From: Spirochaetota bacterium
GTDB lineage: Bacteria > Spirochaetota > UBA12135 > COTS27 > JAFLEE01
NCBI GenBank assembly: GCA_017302015.1
Contig: JAFLEE010000006.1
Coordinates: 1-64,000, forward strand
Direction of reading: 5' to 3'
Length of the DNA: 64,000 nucleotides
Made by a program: the position numbers and the translations under genes. Shown one piece after another: positions 1,229-29,777 of the stretch. Under the pieces are notes generated by a model. The model was not told the origin of the DNA. It ran no database searches and saw only the letters and a list, made by a program, of their open reading frames with translations. Every line of letters begins with the position of its first letter. The stretch's first letter is position 1.

Positions 1229-2698
1229 CTAGAGGCCTTTCCCGGTCTCCCGGTAATAGCGCCGCAGGAAGGGGTTTTCCACCAGGTCCAGGGGGATCTT
1301 CTTCCCTTCCCGCTTGGCGGCATCGATGCGGGCTTGCACGGCGCGGGCCCGGTCGTAGCGCGCGCGGTTTTCCGGGCTGCGCGCCACGTTGGCCTGGATG
1401 AGGGCGTTGATCTGCTCCTCCATCGTTTGGCAGGCCTCCTCCGCGGAGGTGACCTTGGAGAAATAGGCGTCGACGGCGTTGCGCTCCACCTTCTGGTACG
1501 GGTTATAGGCGACGAAGGGCGAGTACTCGCTGGGCGTGCCCAATTCGCTGGATTTTTCCTTGTAGACGCGGTGGGCGTTCCACTCGTTGGGCCAGGCCGG
1601 GGGCTTCCTGAAGGCGTCGCGTTCGCGGAACGAGGGGATGGGCGGCATCTGGTCGCCGTTCTCGGCGATCTCGAGGTTGTGCGGCTCGCTGGTGAGGTAG
1701 AGGAGGAAGTAACGGGCGAGTTTGTGGTTGGCGCTGCCGCTATAGAGGGCGGTGGCGTAGGTGCGGGAGACGGAATTGCGGTAGCCGCCGCTGGGGCACT
1801 CCGCGATGCCGAGGTCCACCGGCCCCGCGCACTCCCGGAGCGAGATGAGGATGGGCAGTCCGCTCCAGACCAGGGCCTGGGTGCCGTTGTGGAACAGGGA
1901 GGTCCAATTGCCTCCGCCCTTGCCCGATTCCACGCTGATGGATTCCGCCTCGGCCCGGGTGGCGAGGAAATGCTCGGTGTAGGTCCAATCGAAGATCTTC
2001 TTGAGGAGGGCGACGTGCTCCGGGCGGTTGAGGGCGCAGGCGGTGAGGGTTTCGTTGAAATAGCTCACTCCGTAGGACCGACGGAAGGTTTCCCGGTCGA
2101 CGTAGTTGATGAAGAAACTCCGCTGGGAGACCTTGCGGTCGCGGTTGGCCTTCTCGACATAGGCGCGCCCGTAGGCCTCGAACGCCTCGACCGTCCAGCG
2201 CTCGGGGGGCGGGGGCATGCCGATCTTGCGGAGCCAGGTGAGGTTGACGAAATAATAGCTCGTCCCGGCGTTCTGGGAGAAGCCCATGCGCTTCCCGGCG
2301 GCGAAGAGTTCGTTGCTGACCGTGGGGTCGTGGTTTTCGGGGGGCACCTTGAGGTCGGCCATGAGATCGTCGAGGGGCTGGACCATCCCGATCTGGTTGA
2401 GGTAGTGGAGATCCCAGCCGAAGAGGTTCATGATATCGGGGCCGACGCCCGCGGCGCCCTGGATGACGAGCTTCTGGAGGGAGCCGTTGATGTTGTCGAC
2501 CTTCACGTCCATGTCGGGGTAGCCGTTCTTCTTCAGCCACACCCGGTACTTGTCGACGGTGACCTGGCGGGTGATGTTATTGTCGGTGGCCCAGTAGAGC
2601 ACGGGAAGGCCGCCGGCCGCGCCGGAGGTGCGCTGGTAGACCATGAACTGGGAGAAGATGACGAGGATCGCCAAGAGGGCGAGGAACGCGTTTTTCAT
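1229..2698 (-). CDS. Extracellular solute-binding protein (ABC SBP family 1-like), paralog A
   Basis: 489 aa with an N-terminal TM/signal segment. The ...GPDI... region and size are typical of MalE-like SBPs. It is a tandem paralog of the next gene (collinear similarity along the whole length). Confidence 0.5.
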   Translation of the reverse strand: MKNAFLALLAILVIFSQFMVYQRTSGAAGGLPVLYWATDNNITRQVTVDKYRVWLKKNGYPDMDVKVDNINGSLQKLVIQGAAGVGPDIMNLFGWDLHYLNQIGMVQPLDDLMADLKVPPENHDPTVSNELFAAGKRMGFSQNAGTSYYFVNLTWLRKIGMPPPPERWTVEAFEAYGRAYVEKANRDRKVSQRSFFINYVDRETFRRSYGVSYFNETLTACALNRPEHVALLKKIFDWTYTEHFLATRAEAESISVESGKGGGNWTSLFHNGTQALVWSGLPILISLRECAGPVDLGIAECPSGGYRNSVSRTYATALYSGSANHKLARYFLLYLTSEPHNLEIAENGDQMPPIPSFRERDAFRKPPAWPNEWNAHRVYKEKSSELGTPSEYSPFVAYNPYQKVERNAVDAYFSKVTSAEEACQTMEEQINALIQANVARSPENRARYDRARAVQARIDAAKREGKKIPLDLVENPFLRRYYRETGKGL

Positions 2699-2715
2699 CT
2701 CGGGGTCTCCTCGGG

Positions 2716-4188
2716 TCAGATGCCGGCGCCGGTGTCTTTATAGTAGCGGTAGAGGAAGGGGTTCTGGACGAGGTTTAGGGGGATCTTCTTCCCCTCCTTC
2801 TTGAACTGGTCGATGCGCGCCTGTACTTCGAGCGCCTTGGCGCGGCGCGCGCGCAATTCGGCGCTGCGTTGGCAGGCCCGGGCGATGAGGTCGTTGATGC
2901 GCTCCTCGGCCTGGGCGCAGGCGGCTTCGGCGGTGGCCACGCGTGAGATGAAGGTATCCCAGGCCTTGTACTCCTCTTTTTGGGTCGGCGCATAGGCGAC
3001 CCAGGGGCTGTACTCGCTGGGGATGCCGAGTTCCTTCGCCTTGTCTTTGTACTGGCGGTGGGCGTCCCATTCGTTGGGCCAGGCGGCGGGCTTCAGGAAC
3101 GCGTCGCGTTCCCGGAAGGCGGGGATGGGGGGCATCTGGTCGCCGTTGTCGGCGATCTGCAGGTTATGCGGCTCGCTGGTGAGGTAGAGGAGGAAATAGC
3201 GGGCGAGTTTTTGGTTGCGGCTGCCGGAGTAGAGGGCGGCGGCGTAGGTGCGCGAGACCGAATTGCGGTAGCCGAGGTTGGGGCATTCGGCGATGCCCAG
3301 GTCGACGGGGGGCTGGATATCCCGCAGCATGATGAGGATGGGCAGGCCGCTCCACTGCATGGCGAAATAGCCGCGGTGGAAGAGCTGGGTGTAATTCCCC
3401 CCGCCCTTGCCCGCCTCCACCGAGAACGAGGCGGATTCGGCGGCGGTGGGGATGAACTTCTCGTCGTACATCCAGCGGTAGATGCGCTTGTAGAGGGCGA
3501 CGTACTCCGGCCGGTTCAGGGTGCAGGCGGTGAGGGTCTCATTGAAGATGCTGATGCCCGCGGAACGCCGCAGGGTTTCGCGGTCGACGGTGTTGATCAG
3601 GAAGGAGCGGACCTTCTCTTTGCGCCCCCGATTGGCCTTCGCCACGTATTCGCGGCCGTAGGCCTCGAACTGGTCGGGCGTCCACGATTCGGGGGGCATG
3701 GCCATGCCGATGGACCGCAGCCAGGTGCGGTTGACGAAATAGTACGAGGTGCCCGCGTTCTGGGAGAACCCGAGGCGCGCCGAGCCTTCCCAGAGGTCGT
3801 TGGAGACCATGGGGTCGTGGTTCTCCGCGGGAACGGGGAGGCCGGCGAACACGGGCCCGAGGTCGGCGATCATGCCGGTTTGGTTGAGGAATTTGAGGTC
3901 CCAGGCGAAGGCGTTGATGATGTCGGGGCCGACGCCGGCGACCCCCTGGATGACGAGCTTCTGGAGGGTGCCGTTGATGTTGTCGACCTTCACGTCCATG
4001 TCGGGGTAGCCGTTCTTCTTGAGCCAGGCCCGGTAGAGGTCGACGGTGCGCTGGCGGGTATTATTATTGTCGGTGGCCCAATAGAGGACCGGGATGCCCC
4101 CGGCGGCCGCGGCGGGCCGCGTCCGGTAGACGACCACCTGGGAGAACGCGACGAGGGCCGTCAGGATGGACAGGAACATGATGCGCAT
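2716..4188 (-). CDS. Extracellular solute-binding protein (ABC SBP family 1-like), paralog B
   Basis: 490 aa with an N-terminal signal/TM. The LPVLYWATDNN...DMDVKVDNING...LTSEPHNL blocks are shared with the 1229..2698 gene. Confidence 0.5.
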   Translation of the reverse strand: MRIMFLSILTALVAFSQVVVYRTRPAAAAGGIPVLYWATDNNNTRQRTVDLYRAWLKKNGYPDMDVKVDNINGTLQKLVIQGVAGVGPDIINAFAWDLKFLNQTGMIADLGPVFAGLPVPAENHDPMVSNDLWEGSARLGFSQNAGTSYYFVNRTWLRSIGMAMPPESWTPDQFEAYGREYVAKANRGRKEKVRSFLINTVDRETLRRSAGISIFNETLTACTLNRPEYVALYKRIYRWMYDEKFIPTAAESASFSVEAGKGGGNYTQLFHRGYFAMQWSGLPILIMLRDIQPPVDLGIAECPNLGYRNSVSRTYAAALYSGSRNQKLARYFLLYLTSEPHNLQIADNGDQMPPIPAFRERDAFLKPAAWPNEWDAHRQYKDKAKELGIPSEYSPWVAYAPTQKEEYKAWDTFISRVATAEAACAQAEERINDLIARACQRSAELRARRAKALEVQARIDQFKKEGKKIPLNLVQNPFLYRYYKDTGAGI

Positions 4189-4357
4189 GGAACCTCCAGG
4201 GGTCGCGGGGGGACATAAGCGGCGGGGGGTCTCGACGGGGCATCATACCCTTCGGCCAGGATCCCCTGCTTCCATTATGGTCCCGTTTGCCGAGGGGCGT
4301 CTTTGGCGTTTTGGCCCCGCCCTTTGCGCTTTAGGGCGGGAACGCATCGGGCGCGCC

Positions 4358-5911
4358 TCAGCCGACGGGCTTCCCGAAGAGGAGTTCGATGACCCGTTCG
4401 AGGGAAGGCTCCGTGCTCCGATAGGTATTGATCACCGTATCCATCGCGGCCTCGTATTCGGCGTGGACGTAGGGGTGGAAATGGCTGATGAAGACCACCG
4501 GCGTGCCGAGGCGCATCCAGCCCTGCATCATATTGCGCGCCACCGCCCCGTGGAGGCGGATGACGTTGACGCCGTAGGAGGCCCCGTTGCCGATGGAGCA
4601 GATGATGGCGTCCCAGCGGCCCTCCCCGACCTCCGCGAAGAGCCGGTCGGGGCCGGGATCGATGAGTTCCTCCACGCCCCCATGGCGCGCCCGCAGGAGT
4701 TCGGTGAAGCGGGAGAGGATCTTCTGGTTGGCCGCGAGGTCGTTGGTGAGGACGAGGTGGAGGATCTTCGAACCGGGGGGGATCCCGAGGGGGAGGGTGG
4801 CGGGGCGGTCGCGCACCACCTCGACGGCCCGCACGGCCATCTCCTTGGCCCAGGCGGCGTGGGCCCCGCGGTCGGCCGCATCGGGGGGCGCCCCGGTCCC
4901 GCCGCCCAAGCCCATCTGGGATTTCAGGGCGAGGATGCGCGCGGCCCGATGGCGCAGGGTGGGGAGTGTGAGGAGGCCGCTCTCCAGGCGCCGCTCCATC
5001 TCGTCGTAGAAGCGCCCGTCCATCTTGGGGAAGAGGAGGCAATCGCCCCCGCGCTCGAAGAAGGCGGCGCAGGCGTCCCAATAATTGAGGTAATTCACCA
5101 CGCCGCCCATATTGATGGCGTCGGAGACGACGAGGCCCCCGAAGCCCAATTCCCCGCGCAGGAGGTCGATCATGAGTTTGCGGGAGAGGGTCGCCGGCGG
5201 GAAGAGGCCGCGGGCGTCGGCGTCGTCGAAGGCGGGCAGCGCGATGTGCCCCGGCATGATCGCCATCACCCCCGCCTCGATGAGGCGCCGGAAGACCCGG
5301 CCCGATCCCAGCCGCCACGCCTCGCGGCCCAAGGGGTTGATGGAGGTGGTGAGGTGCTGGTCGAAGAGGCTGAAGCCGTCCCCCGGAAAATGCTTGGCGG
5401 TGGCCGCCATGCCGTGCTCCTGCATGCCGCGCACATAGGCGGAGGTGATGGCGATGACCTTCTCCGGGTCGCTCCCGGCGGAGCGGTAACTGACGATGGG
5501 ATCCTCGATCTCGCCGAGGAGGTCGGCGCAGGGGGCCAGGGACCAATTGAAGCCGACCTCCCGGCCTTCGAGGGCGGCGGCCTTCCCCATCTTCCACGCC
5601 AAATCCTCGTCGCCCACGCGCCCGCAGGCGAGCATGGAGGGGAAGCGGGTGCCGTCGGTGATCATGTTCCCCGGGCCGGCTTCCATGTCGGTCGTGACGA
5701 GGGGGGGGATCCGGCAGGCTTTCCGGAACGCCTCGATGCGGCGGCGGAGGTTCTCTCCGGGAGCGGGGTGGAAGAAGGCCGCCCCGTATTCCCGCTCCGG
5801 CACCGCGTCCCCGGCGAAATTGGGGCAGCAGACCTGATCGAGGAGCGCGTGGACCCCCATGGCCTCGGCCTGCGCGCGGTGGGTTTCATTCGGGGTGATC
5901 TGGAATTTCAT
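4358..5911 (-). CDS. Glycoside hydrolase family 3 protein (NagZ/beta-glucosidase-like), cytoplasmic
   Basis: 517 aa with the KHFPGDG motif of the GH3 N-terminal domain and a GLVVSDA block. No signal peptide. Confidence 0.7.
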   Translation of the reverse strand: MKFQITPNETHRAQAEAMGVHALLDQVCCPNFAGDAVPEREYGAAFFHPAPGENLRRRIEAFRKACRIPPLVTTDMEAGPGNMITDGTRFPSMLACGRVGDEDLAWKMGKAAALEGREVGFNWSLAPCADLLGEIEDPIVSYRSAGSDPEKVIAITSAYVRGMQEHGMAATAKHFPGDGFSLFDQHLTTSINPLGREAWRLGSGRVFRRLIEAGVMAIMPGHIALPAFDDADARGLFPPATLSRKLMIDLLRGELGFGGLVVSDAINMGGVVNYLNYWDACAAFFERGGDCLLFPKMDGRFYDEMERRLESGLLTLPTLRHRAARILALKSQMGLGGGTGAPPDAADRGAHAAWAKEMAVRAVEVVRDRPATLPLGIPPGSKILHLVLTNDLAANQKILSRFTELLRARHGGVEELIDPGPDRLFAEVGEGRWDAIICSIGNGASYGVNVIRLHGAVARNMMQGWMRLGTPVVFISHFHPYVHAEYEAAMDTVINTYRSTEPSLERVIELLFGKPVG

Positions 5912-5944: not shown

Positions 5945-7234
5945 TCAAAGCGGGGACGTTCGGGCCGGATCCGCGGCGGGGGCGCCCGCGCGCTCGCGGG
6001 AGGTTCGCGCGATCGACGCGTTGAAGCGGCGGACGAAGAGTTTCAATTTGTAGAGGTCGAGGGTGTTCTGGGTATCCGTGCGGATGACCTGGCTACTGGC
6101 CTTGGGATCCATGCGCACGGGGTCGCCGACGTCGAGGGCCGTGCGGTTGAGGACCATGGCGTGGTGCGCGACGATCGCCTTCTGCTTGCGCGCATGGGTG
6201 AGGACGAAGGAGGCCGAGTTGAGGAACTTGAAAAAAGTGTCGCCCGGGAGCCCGACCATGAGGTCGATCTTGTAGCGGATCGACGACCCGTCGAGTAGGC
6301 GCAGCCCCTCCTTGGTCTTTTCCGCGTCCCAGGGCCGGCCGCAGCGGCGCAGGACCTCCCCATCGGTGGATTGGAGCCCCAATTCGGCCCACACGGTGAA
6401 AGAGAAGGATTCCAGGATGGCGACGGTTTCCCGATCGATAAACTCGGGCTTGAGTTCCATGGACACGCGAAGCGGGCCCCGACGGTGGCGCTCGATCATG
6501 CCCAAGATCGCGCGCATGCGCCCCTTGTCGAGGTTGAAATTGGCGTCGAGGAGGGTCAGGTTCGGGAAGGTGAAATGCTCGAACAGGTAGGCGATCTGAT
6601 CCTCCAAAACGGGCAGGGAGACGCATCGGGTGGGGACTTGCGCATAGTAGCAATACGCGCAAGGAAAGGGGCAGCCCCGGGCCGTCTCCAATTTGACGAC
6701 GGCATAGCGCTTCTTCCCCCCCTGGCGGTAGGGGACGGGCAGGGCGTCGAGATCTTCGATGGGGCGCTCGGGGTTACGGCGCACGGCCCCGTTCTCCAGC
6801 CAAATCAGGTTTCGCACCTCGGAGGAGGCGCGTCGTCCCAGGAGATGCTCGAGGAGTTCGGCGAACGCGGCCTCGCCTTCCCCCTGGATGACGAAATCGA
6901 AGGCCGAGATGGCCCGCTCGTCCGCTTCGGGGCCGCCGAGCACCAGGCGGATCCCCGGTCTCAGGGCCCGGATCGCGCGGGCCACGTTGCGGATGATCTG
7001 GATGCTCCAGATATAGCCGGCGAACCCGACGAGATCCGGTTCCTTGAGGAGGATCCAGGAGATGGCCTTCTGTTCGACGCTCAGGTTGGTGTTATGGCTG
7101 AAGCGGCTCCCGTACGGGAATTCCTTGCACTCGATCTGGACGTCGAGCCGGCTTTGGGCGTATCCCTTGAGGGAGGCGAGGCCGAGCGGGAAGGAGTCTT
7201 CCTGGACGCTAAAGCTGAGCAATGCGATTTTCAT
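5945..7234 (-). CDS. B12-binding domain radical SAM protein
   Basis: 429 aa. The N-terminal Rossmann-like cobalamin-binding region is followed by ARGCPFPCAYCYY, which contains the CxxxCxxC radical SAM cluster motif. Confidence 0.75.
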   Translation of the reverse strand: MKIALLSFSVQEDSFPLGLASLKGYAQSRLDVQIECKEFPYGSRFSHNTNLSVEQKAISWILLKEPDLVGFAGYIWSIQIIRNVARAIRALRPGIRLVLGGPEADERAISAFDFVIQGEGEAAFAELLEHLLGRRASSEVRNLIWLENGAVRRNPERPIEDLDALPVPYRQGGKKRYAVVKLETARGCPFPCAYCYYAQVPTRCVSLPVLEDQIAYLFEHFTFPNLTLLDANFNLDKGRMRAILGMIERHRRGPLRVSMELKPEFIDRETVAILESFSFTVWAELGLQSTDGEVLRRCGRPWDAEKTKEGLRLLDGSSIRYKIDLMVGLPGDTFFKFLNSASFVLTHARKQKAIVAHHAMVLNRTALDVGDPVRMDPKASSQVIRTDTQNTLDLYKLKLFVRRFNASIARTSRERAGAPAADPARTSPL

Positions 7235-7640
7235 CGTCCAACCATGCTTGCAGTTCGGGTTCCACGCGCTCGATCGGCCGGGGCGTGAACCCCTCGCCCC
7301 GGTAGGCGCACCAGGGCGCGAGCCGGCACGCCCCGCATTCGGCGAAGGCGCGCGTTCCCCGCTCCTTCCTGAAAATCTCGACCATGTGCTGGATCTCGCC
7401 TTGGCAGAAGGGGATGCCCTGGGTGAGGGGATAGATCTCGTTGACGAGGAGTTCGGCGAAGAGATCGGGGAGGGTGTGGAGGAGACGATCGTCGCGGAAG
7501 CCGAGGATAAAGGATTCCTTCGGGAGGCGGCCTAAGTCGAAGGACTCGATGGGGATGGGATCGGGGAGCAACGGCGGTTCCGCGGGTCGTCTACGCGTCG
7601 CCCAAGCATACCCCTCCGCCGCGTCTTTATCAATGCCCAT
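7209..7640 (-). CDS. Hypothetical Cys-motif protein with a partial SPASM/twitch-like motif, overlapping the rSAM start
   Basis: 144 aa from ATG 7640. The C-terminal region reads GIPFCQGEIQH...FAECGACRLAPWCAYRGEG, which gives CX2CX5C plus one upstream Cys. The 3' end overlaps the rSAM start by 26 nt in a different frame. The longer annotated ORF up to 7940 is an antisense artefact over the divergent gene. Confidence 0.45.
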   Translation of the reverse strand: MGIDKDAAEGYAWATRRRPAEPPLLPDPIPIESFDLGRLPKESFILGFRDDRLLHTLPDLFAELLVNEIYPLTQGIPFCQGEIQHMVEIFRKERGTRAFAECGACRLAPWCAYRGEGFTPRPIERVEPELQAWLDDENRIAQL

Positions 7641-7682
7641 CCGCCATGCGACACTCCACGGGCCGCCCGACGCGCCCCCGCC

Positions 7683-9308
7683 ATGACCCAAAAATTGCTC
7701 GCGCTGCTGGTGGTCAATCTGCTCTGGGGCCTCATCCCCTGGCCGGCGGCCGAACTCTTCGGCGCCTATTCCTCCTTCCTCATCGTCTATGCGCGCTTCG
7801 TCTACTCCGCCCTCGCGCTCTTGGCCGCCACGGCCTTCCTCATCGTCTGGGTCAACCGCTGCGCCAAGGCGCCCATCACCGGGGGGACCCTCGCGCGGTA
7901 TCTGGCGGCGAGAAACGACGATTTCTTCGGCCTGCCCCAATGGGTCTACCTCCTCCTCGTCGCCGTCGTCGGGTTCAACGCCCAGATCGTGCTGTTCTTC
8001 TGGTGCCTCAAGACCCTCGGGGCCATCGCCACCTCGATCGGCTTCGTGCTGGCCCTCCTCATCGCGGCGGTGGTCAATTGGGGCGCGGGGAAGGAGGACA
8101 TGTCGCGGTTCAAAGTCCTCTACCTGGGGACCCTCTTCCTCGCCACGATCATCCTCGGGGCGATGAGTCCGACCACCGCGCCGGGGGGCTCCTTCGGGCC
8201 CGGGAACCTCCTGGTGCTCCTCGTCTTCGGCGCGGTCTACGGTTTCTTCTTCGTCACCAGCGCCGCCGATCGGATGGCCCCGGAGGAATACCGGTTCCTG
8301 CGCGACGCGCCGCGCTGGGTGCTCGTGCGCACCGTCTTCAAGATCGCCGTCATTTTCCTCGTGGCCGCGCTCACGCTGCCGCCGATCGTCTGGGCCCTGA
8401 AGGCGGCGGGGCTGCGGCCCGACCTCACCGCCGAGGCGGCCCGCTTCTTGCGGGAGTGGCCCCAGTGGTGGCGCCTGGGGGTGTCGGGCAGCGGCGTGGT
8501 GCTGATCGTGCTCTGCACCATCCTCCCGACCCTCTGGTTCTACGCGTTGGCCACCTCATGGCCCAAGCAATCCTCCTTCGACCTGTGGGCGGGGGTGCTG
8601 GCGACCACCGAACCGATGCTCAACATGGTCCTCGGGCTCCTCGTCCTCCACGAGGCGTTCCCCCTGCCCTGGCTTCTCGTCGCCATGGCCCTCATGGCCA
8701 TCTCGATCCTCACCCGCTACCTCAGCGAAACCGAATCGCAGGTTTCGGGCGTGGCCCTCATCGACGCCCGCTACGATCGCGGGCGGGCGCTGATGGAGCA
8801 CCTCTACGCCCTCGGGCCGGTTCGCCGGGTGGCGAGCCTCTTGGGCGAGCACGACCTCATGGTCGAGACGCTGTGCGCCTCCTCCCGCGAGTGGGGCGGG
8901 GCGATCCAGGAGATCGCGCGGTCCCCCGGCCTCGCGGCCCAGCGGACGCTCCTGTTGACCCGAATCGAATTCGACCGAGTCGTGCCCGACGCGCAGAAAG
9001 GCGTTTCGCCGCGGACTCGGAGCGCCCGGCGCGGGGCGAACCCGGCCACTGAGGAGGATGGCATGCCCGTTCGCATCGCGAGTTTCTTGAAGGTCGAAAG
9101 CGGGGCGACCGCGGGCGCCGTCGCCGCGCTCCGGGCCCTGCCCGAGGCCGTGCGCGTGCTCTCGATCACGGGGGAATACGACATCATCGTCGAGTTCGAG
9201 GCGCCCACGCCCGAGGATCTCAACGAGGTGCTCGTGAAGCGGGTCGAGGCCATCCCCGGCATCCTCGAACTCCGCTCCCATTTCGTGACGGCCGAGTGGG
9301 AGAAATGA
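7683..9308 (+). CDS. EamA/DMT-type membrane transporter fused to two C-terminal Lrp/AsnC ligand-binding (RAM) domains
   Basis: 541 aa. Residues ~1-340 are multi-pass hydrophobic with an EamA-like duplicated 5-TM pattern. The C-terminus carries two regions (VALIDARYDRG...LLTRIEF and VRIASFLKVESG...LRSHFVTAEWEK) with the AsnC-type RAM fold signature. Confidence 0.55.
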   Translation: MTQKLLALLVVNLLWGLIPWPAAELFGAYSSFLIVYARFVYSALALLAATAFLIVWVNRCAKAPITGGTLARYLAARNDDFFGLPQWVYLLLVAVVGFNAQIVLFFWCLKTLGAIATSIGFVLALLIAAVVNWGAGKEDMSRFKVLYLGTLFLATIILGAMSPTTAPGGSFGPGNLLVLLVFGAVYGFFFVTSAADRMAPEEYRFLRDAPRWVLVRTVFKIAVIFLVAALTLPPIVWALKAAGLRPDLTAEAARFLREWPQWWRLGVSGSGVVLIVLCTILPTLWFYALATSWPKQSSFDLWAGVLATTEPMLNMVLGLLVLHEAFPLPWLLVAMALMAISILTRYLSETESQVSGVALIDARYDRGRALMEHLYALGPVRRVASLLGEHDLMVETLCASSREWGGAIQEIARSPGLAAQRTLLLTRIEFDRVVPDAQKGVSPRTRSARRGANPATEEDGMPVRIASFLKVESGATAGAVAALRALPEAVRVLSITGEYDIIVEFEAPTPEDLNEVLVKRVEAIPGILELRSHFVTAEWEK

Positions 9309-9318
9309 GGAGCCCGCC

Positions 9319-9579
9319 ATGGTGAGCATCCTGAGTTTTATGGTCGTGCGCGTGGGCGCCACGGAATCGGTGACCGAGGCGCTGCGGGCGATCCCCCAGG
9401 TCTCCGACGTCTACTCCATCACCGGCAAGTACGACCTCGCGGTGCGCCTCGAGGGGCGCACCAGCGAGGAGATCTTCGGGATCTTCACGGATTCCATCGA
9501 GAAGATCGAGGGGATCGTCGTGTTCGAATCGCACCTCATCATGCAGCATTGGGCGCGGGGGAGCGCTCCGGTCCGCTGA
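9319..9579 (+). CDS. Stand-alone Lrp/AsnC ligand-binding (RAM) domain protein
   Basis: 86 aa: MVSILSFMVVRVGATESVTEALRAIPQVSDVYSITGKYDLAVRLEGRTSEEIFGIFTDSIEKIEGIVVFESHLIM. This is a typical AsnC C-terminal domain with no HTH. It lies 10 nt after the previous gene. Confidence 0.65.
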   Translation: MVSILSFMVVRVGATESVTEALRAIPQVSDVYSITGKYDLAVRLEGRTSEEIFGIFTDSIEKIEGIVVFESHLIMQHWARGSAPVR

Positions 9580-9627: not shown

Positions 9628-10404
9628 TCAGAAGGCCTGGTCCTGCGGCGATTGCCAAACGCGCACCCAATCGATGAGGAAGGAGTCGGGCAGGGCGGCG
9701 GTCGCGATGTCTCCGCCCCATTTGCCGACCTCCAACGAAAAGATGAGGTGGGAGCGGACTTCGGAGACGGGACCTTCCAGCCGCCCGGTCTCCTGCTCGT
9801 CCACGAAGAAGCGGTACCCCTCCCGGGTCCAGAGCATCGCGAAGGTATGCCAGCCCGAGTCGATACCGGCGACGACGGTATGGACGTTAGTGGATTGGTG
9901 CCCGCTCCCGTAGCCGCCCCAGTGGAGCGTGTGGTTGGCGACTCGGTCCAATTTGCCGTTGCGCAGGTACTCGAAAATATCCAACTCGACCCCGCCCGTT
10001 TGCGGCGGGAGGGCCTTGTCCATGCGATGCGGCATCATCCAGAAGGCGGACCAATGGCCGGGCTGGGTTTGGGGGCGCGCGCGGCACTCGAAGTACCCGC
10101 GGATGAAACCTTTCCTCCCGGCGGAGCTCACCCCGCCCGTGACATAGCAGTCCCCCTCCCGCCGCGTCGTGATGGCGAGGTTCCCGTTCCCGTCGAGGGC
10201 CGCGGCGTCCGCTTGATTCACGGCGTCTCGGCGCGGCCCCGGCGCCCAAGAGGACCACGCATTGGTATCAAACGAGCCGCCTGCGGGGCCCTCGAACTCA
10301 TCGGCGAAGACGAGGCGGTAATCGAGGCCTCGGATCGCCGGGGGCGGGAGGGATACGGCGGGCGCGCTGCATAACAGGACGAGGAGCGGTAGGGTGCGTG
10401 CCAT
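9628..10404 (-). CDS. Glycoside hydrolase family 16 (secreted beta-glycanase)
   Basis: Signal peptide MARTLPLLVLLCSAPAVS. GH16 catalytic motif ELDIFE (ExDxxE) plus a WSAFWMM block. An alternative start at 10434 is possible. Confidence 0.8.
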   Translation of the reverse strand: MARTLPLLVLLCSAPAVSLPPPAIRGLDYRLVFADEFEGPAGGSFDTNAWSSWAPGPRRDAVNQADAAALDGNGNLAITTRREGDCYVTGGVSSAGRKGFIRGYFECRARPQTQPGHWSAFWMMPHRMDKALPPQTGGVELDIFEYLRNGKLDRVANHTLHWGGYGSGHQSTNVHTVVAGIDSGWHTFAMLWTREGYRFFVDEQETGRLEGPVSEVRSHLIFSLEVGKWGGDIATAALPDSFLIDWVRVWQSPQDQAF

Positions 10405-10458
10405 CGGAGATCCTTTCGGTTGTCGCGGTCTCATCGGCTGGTTTTTTTAAGCGCGAGC

Positions 10459-11979
10459 TCACATCCCCTGCATCGGCCGGTTGAGGAACCCCGTCTCCCG
10501 CCAATCCGCCGCCCAATAGCCGCTGCCGGGCTTATAGCGCGCTTTGATGCGCTCGACCAGGTCGGGCCGGCCCAACTTCTCATAGTGCTCCACGACGCGA
10601 TCGAGGCGGCCGCGCAGGTGGTAGGCCCCGCCCTCCTCGATCACCCGCATGAAGGGGTCTTCCTTCCGGTCCGATTTGAGGATCTGCTCATCGACCCATC
10701 CCTGGAGTCTCGCCAGGCCCTCGTGGACGCGTTCGGGCATCGACGGGGCCAGGTCGGCGAGCTCGTGGGGGTCGGTGTTGCGGTTGAAGAGCAGGTGCTC
10801 GGGGAACTCGCGTACGGGATCGCGGTAGGTCTTGATGAGGATGTTTTCTCCCCAGATCACCGCCCGCATGGAACTCCAAGCCGAGTTGGAAATGACCAGC
10901 GACTCCCGCCCCGCTTCCCGGCCGGCGAGGAAGGCGTCCTTGAAACCCACGGCGTCCCACTTTTCGGGCACCCGCATGCCCAGGAGTTCGACGACGGTGG
11001 CCGTGAGGTCGAATTGATAATGGAGCCCGGCGTCGACCCGGGGTTTTAAACCGGGCCATTTCACGATCATGGGCACCCGATTGGTGATGAGGTCGGCGGT
11101 CTGGTGGTCGCCGTAGATGCCCAGTTCACCCTGGTTTTCGCCGTGGTCGGAGGAGATGATGATGGCCGTCTCATCGTAAATACCCAGTTTTTTCAGGTGG
11201 GCGACGACTTTCCCCACCGCCTCGTCGGCGAACCGGATGCCGGTGTCGTAGCCGTCGATATGGCGCTTGTAATCCGCGAGGGTCTTGATCTCCCGCACTA
11301 CCCGCGGGTAGTTCTTGTAATAGTCTTCGCTGGGCCAATCGGTGAGGCGGCTCGCGGCGCAATGCTGGCCGAAATTGCCGTAGTCGCGGTCGATGCGGTC
11401 TTGGGTGATCCAGGGGGCCACGGGATCGCCAGTGAACGGGTTTCCGTAGTCAGCGGGGGTGCGGTAGGGGGTGTGGGGATCCCAGATATTGAAGTGGAGG
11501 TAGAAGTCTTTCTTGCCTTTCAGGCGGTCGAGCATGCCCAGGGCCGTGGGGGTGACCTCGGTCTGGATCTCCATGCCCCCCTTGCCGCAATCGTAGACCT
11601 CGTGGAAGCCGGCGAGGTACCACCACGAATCGTGGCGGCCGGCGAAGGAACTCACGAGGGCGTTATAGGAGCCCGCCTGCTTGAGCACCTGCACGAACTT
11701 CTTGTAGGCGTAGGTATTCCCGAAGGCGCGCCCCGGGCCCTCGGGGTAGGGATCGGCGAAGGTGCCCCCGTGGTTGAGGGCCCCGTTATGGATGCCGAAG
11801 CGCCCGTGGTGGAGCGCCGAGCGCGAGGGCAGGCAGGGCGCATCGGGGACGAAGCAGGCGTCGAAACGCACCGCCTCTTTCGCGACGGCGTCGATGTGCG
11901 GCGAGGTGTTGCGGTGGTAGCCGTAGCAGCCCAGATGGTCGGGGCGCAGGGTATCGATATCGATATAGACGATCTTCAC
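10459..11979 (-). CDS. Cys-type sulfatase (formylglycine-dependent), no signal peptide
   Basis: Begins VKIVYIDIDTLRPDHLGCYG... and carries the sulfatase signature CLPSRSALHHGR (CxPxR). The ORF N-terminal extension to 12513 overlaps the whole IclR gene and is rejected. The GTG start overlaps the IclR TGA stop as GTGA. Confidence 0.8.
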   Translation of the reverse strand: MKIVYIDIDTLRPDHLGCYGYHRNTSPHIDAVAKEAVRFDACFVPDAPCLPSRSALHHGRFGIHNGALNHGGTFADPYPEGPGRAFGNTYAYKKFVQVLKQAGSYNALVSSFAGRHDSWWYLAGFHEVYDCGKGGMEIQTEVTPTALGMLDRLKGKKDFYLHFNIWDPHTPYRTPADYGNPFTGDPVAPWITQDRIDRDYGNFGQHCAASRLTDWPSEDYYKNYPRVVREIKTLADYKRHIDGYDTGIRFADEAVGKVVAHLKKLGIYDETAIIISSDHGENQGELGIYGDHQTADLITNRVPMIVKWPGLKPRVDAGLHYQFDLTATVVELLGMRVPEKWDAVGFKDAFLAGREAGRESLVISNSAWSSMRAVIWGENILIKTYRDPVREFPEHLLFNRNTDPHELADLAPSMPERVHEGLARLQGWVDEQILKSDRKEDPFMRVIEEGGAYHLRGRLDRVVEHYEKLGRPDLVERIKARYKPGSGYWAADWRETGFLNRPMQGM

Positions 11980-12731
11980 GGGAGGGCTCCTTCGGCCCGT
12001 TTGCGGGCCAGTTCGAGGATTTCGACGATGTGCTTGCGGTGGGAGGGCGAGTCGTTGGCGGGGACGGCCGCCTCGGCGATGGCGTAGAGGAACGTCGCCC
12101 CGCCCGCGCGGGGGGCGACGGCGATGGCGTAGCGGCGGATGCCGTTGGCGTTCCCTCGCTCGTCGAACACCACGGCCTCGGGGTCGGTGGCCTCGATGCG
12201 GCGGCGCGCCTGGTCCCAGGTGAGGGGATCTTTCATGGCGAGGATGCCCCGGAAACGGGCCGTGTCGAGGGTGCGTTCGATGGCCTCGGGGGGCATGCGG
12301 CGGAGCATGAGCCGCGCGGGCGCGTCGAGTTCTTGGAGGGTGCGCAGGAACCCGGGTTGGGCGAGGATGCGCACCGCCTGGTCCTCGGGTTCGAGTTTGT
12401 CGTACCAGTAGAGGTCGGTGCCGCGGCGGGTGAGGAGCTCGGCGGCTTGGCCCGTGCGCGTGGCGAGGACCGTAAGTTGGGCGCGCAGAAACGCGATGAC
12501 CTCTTCGCCCCATGGGAGGTCTTTCTCGAGGCGGAAGAGGGGCCGGTAGCGCTTCCCGGCGTCGCGCAGCACGTAGCCTCGGCGTTCCAAGGTCCGCAGC
12601 ATGCGCAGGAGGGTGGCGGCCGGGAGCCCGGTTTTTTCCCTGATTTCGGCATGGGTCGCCCCGGAGCCAGGCAGGAGGCCCAGGGCTTCCAGAAGCGTGA
12701 GGAGTTTATCGGAGGGTTCGCTAGATTCCAT
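11976..12731 (-). CDS. IclR family transcriptional regulator
   Basis: 251 aa with an N-terminal HTH (LLTLLEALGLLPGSGATHAEIREKTGLPAATLLRMLRTLERRGYV) and an IclR-type effector domain. Confidence 0.8.
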   Translation of the reverse strand: MESSEPSDKLLTLLEALGLLPGSGATHAEIREKTGLPAATLLRMLRTLERRGYVLRDAGKRYRPLFRLEKDLPWGEEVIAFLRAQLTVLATRTGQAAELLTRRGTDLYWYDKLEPEDQAVRILAQPGFLRTLQELDAPARLMLRRMPPEAIERTLDTARFRGILAMKDPLTWDQARRRIEATDPEAVVFDERGNANGIRRYAIAVAPRAGGATFLYAIAEAAVPANDSPSHRKHIVEILELARKRAEGALP

Positions 12732-25452: not shown

Positions 25453-28400
25453 TCATTTCGTTTTCTCGACCTCGTACTTCAGGTTGTCGAGCCACAGGGC
25501 GGTGCGCGCCTGGGCCATGGCCGACCAGATGATCATTTCACAGGCGGCCCAATCGGAAGAGCCGTTTCGCAGGCCGCTCCACTCTTCCCGCGCCCCGCCT
25601 TCGGGGGTGATGGCGAGGTCCCAGGTGCCCGCGGGTTTCCCGTCCTGCATGGCCGACATCTCGACGTGCAGCCATTTTTTCTTCGGGAAGGAGGCGAGCT
25701 TGCGCTTGTCCACTTCCAGGGAGCCGTCGGCCAAAATTTTGAACGAGGGGCCGATCCGGTAGGGATTGCCGGCGGTCTCCCGCCACTCGTGCCAGAAGAC
25801 GGCCTCGTCCTCCATCCAAAGGTCGAAGGAGGCCTTGAGGCGGCCCTTGAGGAATTTGTTGGCGAAATTGAGGTGGGGCTTCCATTCGGGGCCGAGATTC
25901 ACGTCGTCCTGGAACTTGAGGCTATAGGTACCCTTGGCGTGGGTGCCGTCGGTGAGGATGCCGGCGTCGTAGCCGCCGAAGGAGGGCGGCACGCCCGGGG
26001 CGATGGCGTCGAAATCCTCGGCGAAGAGGCTGCGGCGGCTGGTGGCTTTCGGCGCCTCGGGGGGCTTGGTGTCGGGGTTCACGCCCCGGGGGGTGTAACG
26101 GGCGGGGAGTCTCGTCCATTCCGCCGCGCCGTAGAGCCCGGCCTTGGCGATCTCGTCGAGGAAGGGCTCGAAGCCGAGTTTGGCCGCGGGGGAGCCGGCC
26201 TTGAGGCGGAAATCGTACTTGGCCGCGTTCTCGAAGAGCGGGTCGGCCACGCGGCCGTTCTTGTCGAAGCCCTCTTCGGCCTGCCACTCCGGGAAGGTGA
26301 TGCCCGAGAAGCTGTAATTCGAGGTGGAGGCGTCCTTCAGATCCCAATAGAGGTTCTTGTCGAAGCGGAACTCCGGGTTCTTGAACCCCTTATTGACCGC
26401 GAACGAATTGGTGGTGAGGACGATATTTCGCTCGAAGATGAAGCTCTTGTTCTTGTCGTCGCCGCGCTTGGAGATCACGTTGCCCTCGGCGGCGAAGGCG
26501 AAGATATTGTTGCGGATGAGGTTATTGCTGCCGTAATGCTGGTGGAACCCGCCGCTTTTGGTGTTGTAGACGAGGTTCTTCTCGAGAAGCACGTCGCTCG
26601 AGCCCTCGTCGGTGTAGAGCCCCCAGCCCCCGTAGGAATAGGCCCACACGTCGTGCACGTGGTTATAGCGCTCCACCGTCCCCGGGGAGATCCCCAGGGT
26701 GTAGATGCCCGCCATGTCCGAGAGTTCGCCGAGGCCGAAATGGTGGAGATGGTTGTGCTCGAAGAGGTTCCCCTGCACGCCCGACGGGGTGTTGAAGCCC
26801 CAGGTCCAGCCGGCCCCGATGGGGGAATAGTCGAGGTCGCTGATCTCGTTATGGGTGATTTTATTGAAGGAACTCTTGCCGATCCACACCCCGTGGGCGC
26901 CGTGGAGGATGAGGTTGACCTTGTGGATGAACGAGTTGTCGACGGTGATGCGCTCGGTGCGCTGGCCGGGGTCGGGGCTATAGCCCGTGTCGCCGATATA
27001 CACGCCGCCGCCGCCGTGGTCGTAGATATGGCATTGGCGCAGGGCCACGTCGAAGCAGCCCTTCTCGATCCAGATGGCGTGCAGGTTGCCGTGGGAGAAC
27101 TCGCAATCGGTGAAAGAAGCGTTCTTCAGGCCGGTGGCCCAGAACATGGCCTTGCGCACGCCGACGAAGGCCTGGCCGTCGATTTTTTCGGTGGGATCGA
27201 AATCGCGGTCGGTGTGGAGGAAACGGAGGCCGCTGACCTCGAGATGCTCCACGTAGGCGCCCGCCTTCGGGTCGCCTTGCACGTCGATGAGGCTGGTGGC
27301 GAAGGGGGCGATGACCTCGAGTTTGTTGGGGTCTTCCCCGGGCTTGGGGAGATAGGAGAGTACGCCGCTGGTGCGGTCGAGGTACCATTCGCCCGGGGCA
27401 TCGAGGGCCTCGCGGACGTTCTCGAAATAATAGCGCGCATCGCCCCATTTGCCGAACGGGTACCCCGAGGGATTTTGGAAGACGAGGCGGCGCTCGCCGG
27501 GGATCGCCAGGGCGAGGCCGTGGACGGAGGCCGTCCAGGAATGGTAGACCCAGGCGTCGATATCCTGGAAATTCGCCCACTGGGGATTCACATCGCCGGG
27601 CTTGTAGATCAGGGCCGTGTTGGGGGCGTCCTTCGGGTTGGACTCGGGGCGGAAGAAGCCCGTGTTCGGGTGGCGGCTGCGCTGGGCGCGCTCCCCGCCG
27701 ACCCAGAGGGCCTTGAAGTACCATTCGCCGCTCTTCACCGCGGGGATCGTGGTTTGCCAAAGTTCGCCGACCTTCGTCCATCCGGTGATCGGCCGGCCGC
27801 CGCTGAGGGTGGCCGCGCCGGGGGTCTCGGCGACGATGCGCAGGGGCTTGCCCGGGGTGCCCGAGATGTCGGGGGTGAGGAGGATGGGCCCGGAAATCCG
27901 GTAGGTGCCGTTCTTCACCACGATCTGGGCGCCGTCCTTGCCTTGCCCCTTGGCCCGCAGGCCGCGGATCATCTCGAGGGCCCCGTTCACCGAGGCGAAG
28001 GGCCCGTCGCTCTTCTGGGCGTTCGGGGCGGGGAGCGTCCCGGTGAAGCGGTCGTCGCCATCGGGCGCCACGTAATAGGTGGCGGCGGCCTTGAGGTTTT
28101 GGGTCCGGGTGCGCGGGGTGTAGCCCGTGGGGCCCGAGGGCACCTTGGGTTCCTTCGGGGGCTTCGCGACGGCCCGGGACTCGGAGGCGATCTCGTCGGC
28201 GGAGAGGGCCCGCTTCCACAGGCGGACCTCGTCGACGCTGCCGATGATGTTCTGCCAGCTGCTGCCGATGGTCAGCGGCTTGTCGCTTAGGTATTGGATG
28301 CCGGCGGCGGTCCCGAGATTCCCCTCGCCTTCCGGGGCGCCGTCGACGTACCAGCGGAGTTTGCCCGCGCCGCGATCGAAGACCATGGCGATGTGGGCCC

Positions 28401-29550
28401 ATTTCTTGGGGGTCAGCTTGGCCTGGGACCGCTGGTTGAGCCCCATCTTCTCCGTGTCGGTCTTGGCGCCGGTCTCGAATTGGAGCGTGCCGTCTTCCAG
28501 CACGTCGATGACGCCGTAGACGGCGGGCCAATTGTCGACGAGGGCGGCGAGGCGCCGCCGCTTGTCGGCCCCCGGTGCGGTGAAGTCGTCGATCTTCGCC
28601 CGGCAGGAGAAGGTGAAGGAGGAGAGGCCGATCTGGTTCTCCCGGGGAAGGGCGAGGGCCACGGTCTCCTTGGAATCGCCCTTCATGCCGACCCCGTAGC
28701 CCGACCAACCGGCGGCCCATTGGGCGTTCACGATGGCGGCGGCGCCCCGGGCGTCGCGGGCGGCTTTGCCGCTGCCCTCCTCGAAGGAGAGGCTGATGTC
28801 CGGGCCGCCCGCGCCCGGGGCGCCTTCGGCGGCTTGGCCGGCCGCCTTCATCTCTGCGGAAATCTCCTGGGCGCCGAGGGCGGCGCGCCACAGCTTGAAC
28901 TCGTCGAGGGCGCCCTTGAAGTTCTGCCAGGAACTCCCGAGGGTCATGGGCTTGTCGAGGACGAGGTCGGGATCCCAGCCGTTCTCGATGGGGGCGGAGG
29001 CATCGGCCTGGCCATCGAGGTAGAGGGTGGCCTTGCGGGCGCTGCGGTCGACCACGAGCGCCACGTGGGTCCAGCGGTTCTCGGCGAGGGGGGTCTTTCC
29101 CTTGACGTTGAGGGTGCGCATGGTCTCGCCGTCTTTATAGCCGCTTTGGAACTCGAGGAGGCCGGTGGTGCGCACATCCAGCACGGTCCATTGCTTGGGA
29201 TAGGCCTCCAAGCCGAAGAGCCGGCGGCGATTATCCTTGGCTTCGATGGCGAGGGAAGTGGGGTTCGCCCAGAACGCCAGCGTGAAGGAGGCCTTGCCGA
29301 ATTGCTTGTCGCCCATCGCCTTGAGCGAGACGAACTTGGCCGCGGTGCCGTCGAGCCAGACGGCGCCCCCGGATTTTCCGTTGGTGAAGGCGCCGGCGTA
29401 CTCCACGGGCACCGCGCCGGCGGAATCCTTCAGTGCGGCGGCGCTCCCCTCGTCGAAGCTGAGCCGGATGATCGGGGCAGGCGCGGCGGCGGGGGTGACG
29501 GCCCCGAGCAGAAGGGCCAAGGCCATGAACCGGAAACGTGGTAGGCGCAT
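25453..29550 (-). CDS. Giant secreted protein with 3 LamG/ConA-like domains, a right-handed parallel beta-helix and C-terminal beta domains
   Basis: 1365 aa from ATG 29550 (MRLPRFRFMALALLLGAVTPAAA). It has three repeated blocks ending ...LDEFKLWRAALGAQEIS / VDEVRLWKRALSADEIA, which are LamG-type. The region YYVAPDGDDRFTGTLPAP...NGTYRISGPILLT is typical of pectate-lyase-fold beta-helix proteins. Confidence 0.55.
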   Translation of the reverse strand: MRLPRFRFMALALLLGAVTPAAAPAPIIRLSFDEGSAAALKDSAGAVPVEYAGAFTNGKSGGAVWLDGTAAKFVSLKAMGDKQFGKASFTLAFWANPTSLAIEAKDNRRRLFGLEAYPKQWTVLDVRTTGLLEFQSGYKDGETMRTLNVKGKTPLAENRWTHVALVVDRSARKATLYLDGQADASAPIENGWDPDLVLDKPMTLGSSWQNFKGALDEFKLWRAALGAQEISAEMKAAGQAAEGAPGAGGPDISLSFEEGSGKAARDARGAAAIVNAQWAAGWSGYGVGMKGDSKETVALALPRENQIGLSSFTFSCRAKIDDFTAPGADKRRRLAALVDNWPAVYGVIDVLEDGTLQFETGAKTDTEKMGLNQRSQAKLTPKKWAHIAMVFDRGAGKLRWYVDGAPEGEGNLGTAAGIQYLSDKPLTIGSSWQNIIGSVDEVRLWKRALSADEIASESRAVAKPPKEPKVPSGPTGYTPRTRTQNLKAAATYYVAPDGDDRFTGTLPAPNAQKSDGPFASVNGALEMIRGLRAKGQGKDGAQIVVKNGTYRISGPILLTPDISGTPGKPLRIVAETPGAATLSGGRPITGWTKVGELWQTTIPAVKSGEWYFKALWVGGERAQRSRHPNTGFFRPESNPKDAPNTALIYKPGDVNPQWANFQDIDAWVYHSWTASVHGLALAIPGERRLVFQNPSGYPFGKWGDARYYFENVREALDAPGEWYLDRTSGVLSYLPKPGEDPNKLEVIAPFATSLIDVQGDPKAGAYVEHLEVSGLRFLHTDRDFDPTEKIDGQAFVGVRKAMFWATGLKNASFTDCEFSHGNLHAIWIEKGCFDVALRQCHIYDHGGGGVYIGDTGYSPDPGQRTERITVDNSFIHKVNLILHGAHGVWIGKSSFNKITHNEISDLDYSPIGAGWTWGFNTPSGVQGNLFEHNHLHHFGLGELSDMAGIYTLGISPGTVERYNHVHDVWAYSYGGWGLYTDEGSSDVLLEKNLVYNTKSGGFHQHYGSNNLIRNNIFAFAAEGNVISKRGDDKNKSFIFERNIVLTTNSFAVNKGFKNPEFRFDKNLYWDLKDASTSNYSFSGITFPEWQAEEGFDKNGRVADPLFENAAKYDFRLKAGSPAAKLGFEPFLDEIAKAGLYGAAEWTRLPARYTPRGVNPDTKPPEAPKATSRRSLFAEDFDAIAPGVPPSFGGYDAGILTDGTHAKGTYSLKFQDDVNLGPEWKPHLNFANKFLKGRLKASFDLWMEDEAVFWHEWRETAGNPYRIGPSFKILADGSLEVDKRKLASFPKKKWLHVEMSAMQDGKPAGTWDLAITPEGGAREEWSGLRNGSSDWAACEMIIWSAMAQARTALWLDNLKYEVEKTK

Positions 29551-29777
29551 GCGGGTCTCCTGATGGTCGGCCCCTCGGGCGGGACTCCCAGCGAAATCTG
29601 CCTCTATTATATGAAGAGACTTGGCCGAACAGAATACGCGCAAAAGGAATGGGCATTCGCGAAACCTGCCCCCCGGGGTTAGAATACCCGGTAGAAGCCG
29701 GAATGCAAGCCGATCGCCCACGCGAAAGCGCCCATATCGACCCGTCGAGCGACCATCGGGTTTTTCCCGAATCCTCC

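Follow-up and report, generated by a model that had tools for sequence, protein, structure and literature searches.

A putative iron-sulfur partner protein encoded in overlap with a B12-binding radical SAM enzyme in a Spirochaetota bacterium and in Woesearchaeota-like archaea

Introduction

When a short open reading frame (ORF) carrying a cysteine motif runs into the beginning of an enzyme gene, is it a gene in its own right or the detached end of that enzyme? This question is raised by a 64,000-nucleotide (nt) stretch of DNA from a Spirochaetota bacterium (contig JAFLEE010000006.1, positions 1 to 64,000; hereafter the window), in which a radical S-adenosylmethionine (rSAM) enzyme with a B12 (cobalamin)-binding domain is encoded on the minus strand at 5945..7234 (429 amino acids [aa], ATG at 7234, NCBI MBN8215561.1). 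The first 26 nt of this gene, 7209..7234, are shared with the end of a small gene lying upstream on the same strand at 7209..7571 (120 aa, TTG start, NCBI MBN8215562.1), the product of which is annotated as "hypothetical protein J0L75_02920." Cobalamin-dependent rSAM enzymes form a large group, the members of which are mostly unassigned. The original prediction for this locus, which was made from the DNA letters, saw in the small ORF a resemblance to half of a SPASM-like cluster-binding motif and offered two explanations, a translationally coupled partner of the rSAM enzyme or one fused enzyme broken by a −1 frameshift. Here, we report that the small ORF is very likely a real, separate partner gene, the product of which resembles, in profile comparisons, an HxsC-like rSAM enzyme in its C-terminal half, and we discuss what such a partner might do.

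Results

As for the question of one gene or two, the evidence comes from the recurrence of the pair. A direct word-indexed search with the small protein returned two relatives (96% and 61% identity), each adjoining an orthologous rSAM gene, and a repeat of the word-indexed homologue search returned eight. The small family was revealed only via loci anchored on the rSAM gene and via an exhaustive profile search of representative proteins. The rSAM-anchored search defined a tight orthologue group of 27 proteins (42 to 76% identity, 386 to 442 aa), and in 17 of the 17 other distinct orthologous loci examined, the small protein and the rSAM enzyme are encoded as a pair, in the same order and overlapping. 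The loci, drawn from NCBI, JGI, ENA, and Logan assemblies that are independent of each other, are L001–L004, L006–L011, L096–L099, and one JGI place listed without DNA (L005 repeats L004). In the profile search, which covered 1.84 billion representative proteins, the small family forms 52 clusters (72 to 260 aa), none of which is fused to an rSAM enzyme or has a CX3CX2C motif. Identity to the window protein is 61% in the second bacterium and 20 to 37% across some 50 clusters, always adjoining the same rSAM. Among longer B12-rSAM relatives (600 to 730 aa, DUF4080 types), the small domain is neither fused nor encoded upstream in 76 loci (L012–L087), two Nitrospirota loci excepted.

The two genes were also compared with those of a 97%-identical strain. 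The small gene displays five synonymous and five nonsynonymous changes, which corresponds to a ratio of nonsynonymous to synonymous polymorphism (pN/pS) of 0.25 to 0.30, while the rSAM gene displays 24 and 4, respectively (pN/pS of 0.054). The small gene is thus under purifying selection, more relaxed than that acting on the rSAM gene, these counts being very small. Since two-ORF loci recur, no fused homologue exists in the 52 clusters, and selection is purifying, the notion of a single enzyme broken by a frameshift is rejected. The suggestion of a genuine partner gene has held up, and we are highly confident in it, translational coupling being read from the overlap.

Comparison of the junction across orthologous loci shows that the homologues are never fused and that they overlap by either 26 or 4 nt. 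As predicted, the stop codon of the small ORF (TAG, 7209–7211, minus strand) lies 26 nt inside the rSAM frame. Since the latter is +1 relative to the small ORF, fusing the two frames would need a +1 shift and not the −1 shift originally proposed. Within the overlap, the tail of the small protein, D-E-N-R-I-A-Q-L-stop, is encoded together with the start of the rSAM enzyme, M-K-I-A-L-L-S-F-S. An identical 26-nt overlap is present in L001, L002, L004, L008, L009, L010, L096, L097, L098, and L099, while L006, L007, and L011 have instead a 4-nt ATGA overlap, in the other frame. In the 26-nt type, the stop of the partner is built from the nearly invariant F8-N9/S9 codons of the rSAM gene (TTTAA/TTTAG). 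Because the position of the stop is set by these codons, the conserved 26-nt overlap needs no special explanation. Conversely, in the junctions of the window and L001–L010, the conserved C-terminal residues of the partner, (D/E)EN....(F/L)-stop, are fixed by the rSAM N terminus that overlaps them, MKI(L)LL.F(N/S), which makes this junction a tidy case of one reading frame constraining another in two domains of life.

The other end of the small gene has to be redrawn. It had been taken to start at 7640, as a 144-aa ORF, but a start at TTG 7571 (120 aa) is more likely than one at ATG 7640 (143 aa). The longer version is probably too long because both NCBI and JGI call the 120-aa form from TTG 7571, the alignments of homologues begin only at about residue 5 of this form, a promoter-like site falls within the longer version, and the start of the divergent gene, at 7683, is only 42 nt from ATG 7640. 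The promoter-like site is a match to the σ70 consensus (7605..7633, minus strand, TTGATA-17-TATGCT), upstream of the small gene as we define it, and was the one site found in a scan for which 0.2 were expected in shuffled sequences; it is a consensus match only. The ORF extension 5′ of the TTG (7572..7640, minus strand) is thus probably a 5′ untranslated leader and promoter, not coding sequence.

The most prominent feature of the small protein is its four cysteines. The layout originally described, one upstream Cys followed by CX2CX5C, is indeed present, in a region (7308..7406, minus strand) that reads GIPFC56-22 residues-C79-x2-C82-x5-C88 in the numbering of the 120-aa form and represents a candidate single iron-sulfur (Fe-S) site. 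The four codons are at 7406–7404 (C56), 7337–7335 (C79), 7328–7326 (C82), and 7310–7308 (C88), and the second part of the motif reads CGACRLAPWC, 22 residues after GIPFC. In the 42 Cys-bearing members of the family, C56 and C82 are invariant, and C79 and C88 are at least 90% conserved. The exact CX2CX5C spacing is found in 40 of 53 family representatives, two others having a variant spacing and one being a fragment without the C-terminal region. The motifs of the family, (F/Y)P(L/F)..G.P(F/L)C, H..E.F, CX2CX5C, and F..(K/R)P(I/V), are all kept in the window protein, which matches the profile of the family with an E value of 1.5e-31. Members without the cysteines still share motifs with the others, such as FAEL...YPL..G and H..E.F. 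Conservation is spread over the fold, no hypervariable core being seen in the family alignment. Because a SAM-cluster motif is missing from the small protein, the latter cannot, judging from its sequence, be a radical SAM catalyst.

The small family is not represented in the databases of protein families. When the small protein and the 42 family members were scanned individually against Pfam and NCBIfam, no model covered them, in keeping with the original view that no known family has this layout. The window protein has no match at E ≤ 1 to the SPASM models TIGR04085 and PF13186. Among the 42 members, a single one matches TIGR04085, with an E value of 0.12, and none matches PF13186. Neither the window protein nor any of the 42 members has a match at E ≤ 1 to the PqqD/RRE (RiPP recognition element; RiPP, ribosomally synthesized and posttranslationally modified peptide) families or to YkgJ (PF03692). 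The hidden Markov model (HMM) searches that had been suggested for this protein thus assign it to none of these families, whether directly or through its relatives. Similarly, HxsC (TIGR03977) is unmatched by the window protein and reached by one of the 42 members, with an E value of 0.0023. Matches to DUF7837 (E values of 0.04 to 0.05) and single stray matches were dismissed as noise, and the only matches of the family profile to PDB sequences, to SAM synthetase at E values of about 0.7, were taken as chance. Structure prediction by AlphaFold2, using the 42-sequence alignment, yielded a compact model with a mean predicted local distance difference test (pLDDT) score of 92 and a predicted template modeling score of 0.82. 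With 8 sequences, the pLDDT was 53.

A clue to the origin of the small protein is provided by the next-closest relatives of the window rSAM enzyme, which are B12-rSAM enzymes from Nitrospirota (31 to 33% identity, E value of about 1e-53). In these bacteria, the gene that is directly upstream of the B12-rSAM gene, and overlaps it, encodes a full-length rSAM enzyme of about 286 aa, with CNNKCLYC and GGEPTLR motifs and a match to the Pfam Radical_SAM family. In NCBIfam, it is matched best by HxsC4 and HxsC, both below their cut-offs; the HxsC match has an E value of 2.8e-26 and spans profile positions 28 to 288 of 292, with a score of 92 bits for a cut-off of 268. When the small family was aligned with this Nitrospirota partner using hhalign, small alignments gave a probability of 88%, which rose to 96.4% (E value of 1.2e-9, 119 columns) with 42 and 5 sequences, respectively. 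Searched with hmmsearch against 8,690 ORF translations from 99 loci, the 42-sequence profile matched eight of eight Nitrospirota partners at residues ~137–281 (E value of about 1e-10, 40 bits) and nothing else. In the reverse search, a profile of the Nitrospirota partner also matched members of the small family.

The homologous region corresponds to residues ~137–289, the C-terminal half, of the Nitrospirota rSAM. Aligned in it are two barrel strands, a helix, (Y/W)xLTxG(I/L)PFC, a helix with H..E.(F/Y), CX2CX5C, and an F.P motif, and all four cysteines correspond, C56, C79, C82, and C88 of the small protein being aligned with C214, C245, C248, and C254 of the HxsC-like enzyme. The resemblance to SPASM that had been noted is thus partly upheld, since the homology of the small protein to an HxsC-like rSAM extends over the C-terminal half of the latter, CX2CX5C included, while the SPASM/twitch models themselves are unmatched. 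These comparisons indicate that each gene of the window cassette has a counterpart in a cassette of Nitrospirota, where the gene order is unchanged, the two homologues likewise overlap, and the upstream one encodes a complete enzyme. Archaeal partners are mostly 180 to 230 aa long, and short forms like that of the window (100 to 130 aa) are also found in low-GC lineages, such as L099 (115 aa, 25% guanine-plus-cytosine [GC] content), the rSAM of which is more closely related to the bacterial pair than any other. As judged from the alignments, the shared unit is a C-terminal module of ~100 to 120 aa.

The Nitrospirota-type loci have features of their own. In L012, L017, and L088–L093, there is a conserved gene order consisting of a HAD-type phosphatase, the HxsC-like rSAM (~286 aa), and the B12-rSAM (~436 aa), which is KedN5-like (E value of 2.6e-55, below cut-off). 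In L090 and L091, a fourth gene encodes a protein of ~550 aa, the N terminus of which looks by eye like a BadF/BcrA-type ATPase. This four-gene cassette appears to be uncharacterized.

The rSAM enzyme itself shows the features of a class-B, i.e., cobalamin-binding, type of radical SAM enzyme, as assigned from its domains. Its B12-binding (Rossmann-like) domain (6851..7210, minus strand, aa 9–128) matches PF02310 with an E value of 1.1e-12 and a score of 48.3 bits for a cut-off of 32.1. The radical SAM core (6209..6688, minus strand, aa 183–342) matches PF04055 with an E value of 3.5e-14, above the gathering score. The CX3CX2C motif (nt 6650–6673, minus strand) reads CPFPCAYC (aa 188–195), and its cysteines, C188, C192, and C195, are invariant in all 27 orthologues. 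When a profile of the rSAM was compared to solved structures, the best match was CysS (9n1b, E value of 8e-33), followed by TokK (7kdx, 7e-27) and then OxsB. The enzyme does not belong to any of the named B12-rSAM families in NCBIfam, since 26 of 26 matches are below cut-off, the best being TIGR04013 (MJ_1487) with 95 bits for a cut-off of 251. Other matches below cut-off include KedN5 (2e-23), ApyD (9.5e-18), rSAM_ocin_1 (5e-12), and PhpK; BchE and HpnJ/R were tested as well. Cobalamin binding and methyl transfer by this enzyme would be expected from its similarity to CysS and TokK only.

We then consider where the cassette is found. Of the 17 other loci, two are in high-GC bacteria and the remainder in low-GC, Woesearchaeota-like contigs. 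The GC content of these contigs is 25 to 46% (L002–L011, L096, L097, and L099), while that of the two bacterial lineages is 65 to 66%, the high-GC bacterial cassettes matching their hosts (in the window, 64% for the cassette and 66.5% overall). Several of the 27 rSAM orthologues bear Woesearchaeota or "archaeon" names, and, among GTDB species genomes, true orthologues were found only in three Woesearchaeota metagenome-assembled genomes (MAGs) and one unclassified archaeon MAG. This distribution implies an old interdomain transfer. The window bacterium has probably gained or shared the cassette in this way, early enough that its GC content now matches that of the host. A neighbor-joining tree, star-like, resolved no direction of transfer.

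The surroundings of the cassette differ between the two domains. In the bacterial loci (the window, L001, and L098), the order is a divergent RAM-domain membrane protein, the small gene, the rSAM gene, a glycoside hydrolase of family 3 (GH3), and solute-binding proteins. The GH3 gene (4358..5911, minus strand) is 33 nt downstream of the rSAM gene, on the same strand, and may be cotranscribed with the cassette, no terminator-like site having been found between them. This synteny is confined to bacterial loci and is absent from archaeal loci, which have no conserved third gene and where the neighbors are varied housekeeping genes. No peptide-maturation genes (RRE/PqqD, protease, or transporter partners) flank the window cassette. 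The original remark that the neighbors are not peptide genes is therefore correct for the window, where they encode GH3, solute-binding, and RAM-domain proteins, and extends to the archaeal loci. No riboswitch or other RNA element was found between 5500 and 8200. In two archaeal loci, there is a Peptidase_U32 gene near the cassette (L007, 4101–5348; JGI place xHkgR1uw, 2105–4309). The Peptidase_U32 family includes oxygen-independent RNA and quinone hydroxylases. These neighbors are at most a weak hint of an RNA-modification context, since they concern two loci in housekeeping-dense genomes.

Other genes in the window were annotated as well. The divergent gene (7683–9308, plus strand) encodes a 541-aa protein that is hydrophobic and multipass in its N-terminal part and carries an Lrp/AsnC ligand-binding (RAM) domain at its C terminus (aa 470–536); the protein matches no transporter Pfam family at E ≤ 0.001. 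The divergent gene is followed by a gene for an 86-aa stand-alone RAM-domain protein (9319–9579, plus strand), and the same RAM pair is found beside the cassette in L001 and L098. The sulfatase ORF (10459–12513, minus strand, 684 aa) probably has its true start well downstream: its first ~170 residues are Arg/Pro-rich and look noncoding, the Pfam Sulfatase domain begins at aa 181, and the sulfatases called in L098 and L001 are 506 aa long. The polysaccharide-use genes of the window (1229–5911, 9628–12513, and 25453–29721) encode two solute-binding proteins, GH3, GH16, and the sulfatase, together with a 1,422-aa Laminin_G_3/GH141/β-helix protein. Since the window is rich in such genes, the host is read as a glycan degrader. 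Nothing links these glycan genes functionally to the rSAM cassette, save for the adjacent, possibly cotranscribed, GH3.

Discussion

What might the small protein do? The reading that we favor, with some reservation, is that of a translationally coupled two-gene cassette encoding a noncatalytic Fe-S accessory subunit and a class-B cobalamin rSAM enzyme. The overlapping stop and start at 7209..7234, the proposed coupling junction, would couple translation, with both proteins being made together. The small protein would then bind the rSAM enzyme as an accessory subunit, and its four-Cys forms, such as that of the window, would hold one [4Fe-4S] cluster, which might help in orienting the substrate or in supplying electrons. 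The B12-rSAM enzyme would in turn run a cobalamin-dependent radical reaction, most likely a C-methylation. Because the archaeal cassettes occur without conserved neighbors, the substrate is more likely to be a common cellular component than a dedicated peptide. Taken separately, Fe-S binding by the small protein is probable, while the chances that it acts as an Fe-S accessory subunit appear to us evenly balanced. In HxsC, a second 4Fe-4S domain near the C terminus (C342/C345) has been described, the mutation of which lowers activity (2026 paper, PMC13128918).

The small protein is preferentially read as a truncated full rSAM enzyme, because the shared module includes barrel strands. This is only one reading, the other being a shared C-terminal module joined to different N termini, and it is one of several points that weigh against the proposal as a whole. 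When the long N-terminal extensions of archaeal partners were compared with rSAM cores, no similarity was found, and we therefore do not claim them to be degenerate cores. About 10 of the 53 family representatives are without the cysteines, and likewise the partners in L004, L006, and L008, because of which the cluster cannot be essential to the common role of the family. Finally, the small gene evolves faster than its neighbors, although on very small counts. A wider version of our proposal, in which truncation is retained, is tentative and, with all its parts, rather unlikely. It holds that the cassette encodes an undescribed heterodimeric cobalamin rSAM that receives its auxiliary Fe-S domain in trans, from a second rSAM of which only the C-terminal half survives. 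There would then be a series from two enzymes (Nitrospirota) to an enzyme plus a relic subunit (Woesearchaeota-like archaea and the window bacterium), serving a housekeeping modification that is kept in very small DPANN genomes and has crossed the boundary between archaea and bacteria.

Several other explanations have to be weighed against an accessory subunit. A decaying relic of a second rSAM gene, kept only to deliver ribosomes to the overlapping rSAM start, is unlikely, even though it ranks above the others. It would fit with the loss of the Cys motif in about a fifth to a quarter of the small family, the range of lengths (72 to 260 aa) with nonhomologous N termini, a pN/pS five times that of the rSAM gene, and a divergence between the two bacteria that is faster for the small protein (61% identity) than for the rSAM (76%). 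Yet this pN/pS is still well under 1, the ORF is intact at every locus in two domains, motifs are kept even in Cys-less members, and the alignment carries enough signal to support the pLDDT-92 model. We think it a little less likely still that we are dealing with a true SPASM or twitch domain, made as a polypeptide of its own. SPASM and twitch domains (TIGR04085, PF13186) are Cys-rich extensions after the rSAM barrel that bind extra [4Fe-4S] clusters and share the CX2CX5C spacing. The SPASM signature comprises seven Cys, CX9-15GX4C...CX2CX5CX3C...C, and the twitch domain is a reduced set on the same β-hairpin/helix topology. In contrast, the window protein is unmatched by the HMMs, has four Cys and not seven, and is free-standing, upstream of a different enzyme.

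A role of the small protein as substrate of the rSAM, be it a precursor protein or a RiPP-like peptide, is improbable. The strict adjacency of the two genes, the weak similarity of the rSAM to RiPP methyltransferases (ApyD and rSAM_ocin_1), and the fact that HxsC-type enzymes mature a protein would be consistent with it. However, every RiPP-family score is far under its cut-off, the RRE/PqqD, protease, and transporter partners of such a system were not found at the window locus, and the small protein, for which a compact, well-ordered fold is predicted, has its homologue in an enzyme domain and not in a leader/core peptide. Its conservation extends across the fold, without a hypervariable core. 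The substrate or precursor role raised by the original prediction is disfavored on the same grounds. Finally, a single enzyme split by a frameshift, whether through sequencing error, as a pseudogene, or by a programmed +1 frameshift giving a fused Cys-domain/B12-rSAM protein, is highly improbable. The 26-nt frame overlap around GAUGAAAAU is conserved across domains, but the conserved stop is accounted for by the F8-N9 codons of the rSAM gene, and the 4-nt ATGA overlap of L006, L007, and L011, being in the other frame, leaves no single conserved shift site. Similarly, the Cys region sits within an rSAM polypeptide in the full-length relatives, but this polypeptide is a different, upstream rSAM and not the B12 enzyme. 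Moreover, the two-ORF layout is found in all 17 other loci, across NCBI, JGI, ENA, and Logan assemblies, and there is no fused homologue among 1.84e9 representatives, the rSAMs being 386 to 442 aa long and the small family at most 260 aa.

Comparison with known systems shows that the parts of the cassette, a class-B rSAM and a Cys domain derived from an rSAM, are of known kinds, and we have not found their combination described; our literature search found no paper on a small-gene/B12-rSAM cassette. Like the window enzyme, CysS (9n1b), TokK (7kdx), and the KedN5 family (NF033712) have an N-terminal B12-binding domain followed by a CX3CX2C rSAM core. However, the window enzyme is 429 aa long, while these are 620 to 680 aa, and it is without their large C-terminal domain, scoring 82 to 95 bits for family cut-offs of 251 to 700. 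To our knowledge, enzymes of the CysS/TokK/KedN5 type have not been described with an overlapping small Cys-protein partner. PqqD/RRE proteins are, like the small partner, short and encoded beside an rSAM with which they act. Nevertheless, they have no sequence similarity to it (no Pfam match), they bind precursor peptides, for which the present locus has no gene, and are without a Cys cluster.

The systems closest to the upstream partner are themselves rSAM-derived. Among named proteins, the best relative of the Nitrospirota partner is HxsC (TIGR03977; HxsC4, NF038332), which serves as the rSAM maturase in the His-Xaa-Ser (HXS) system. It has a second, C-terminal Fe-S region with a CxxC (PMC13128918) and works beside a second rSAM gene. 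The window protein differs in having no SAM-cluster core at all and no match to the profile, there are no HxsA, HxsB, or HxsD genes at the window or archaeal loci, and the partner here is a B12-rSAM instead of HxsB. Pseudo-SAM/SPASM (TIGR04347), going by its NCBIfam name, is an rSAM-derived protein that has lost the SAM cluster and kept the C-terminal cluster domain, which is the same kind of degeneration as that proposed for the small protein. Unlike the small family, it keeps a full-length scaffold (390 profile positions), and it matches only the core of the Nitrospirota partner (1.6e-13 and 4.9e-10) and not the small family.

Together, these findings define a compact pair of genes, covered by no curated family, in which the rSAM has an obligate small partner with its evolutionary origin in an HxsC-like rSAM, of which it represents the C-terminal half. 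The value for annotation is modest but real, since a 120-aa "hypothetical protein" can now be linked to the adjoining rSAM and need not be suspected as an artefact. The high-GC bacterial copy is a more tractable source for expression. If the partner is an Fe-S subunit acting in trans, it would be a clear case in which an enzyme has lost its catalytic role and become an accessory subunit and would represent a new architecture for class-B rSAM enzymes. The persistence of the cassette alone in Woesearchaeota-like genomes points to a modification reaction that is retained by reduced organisms.

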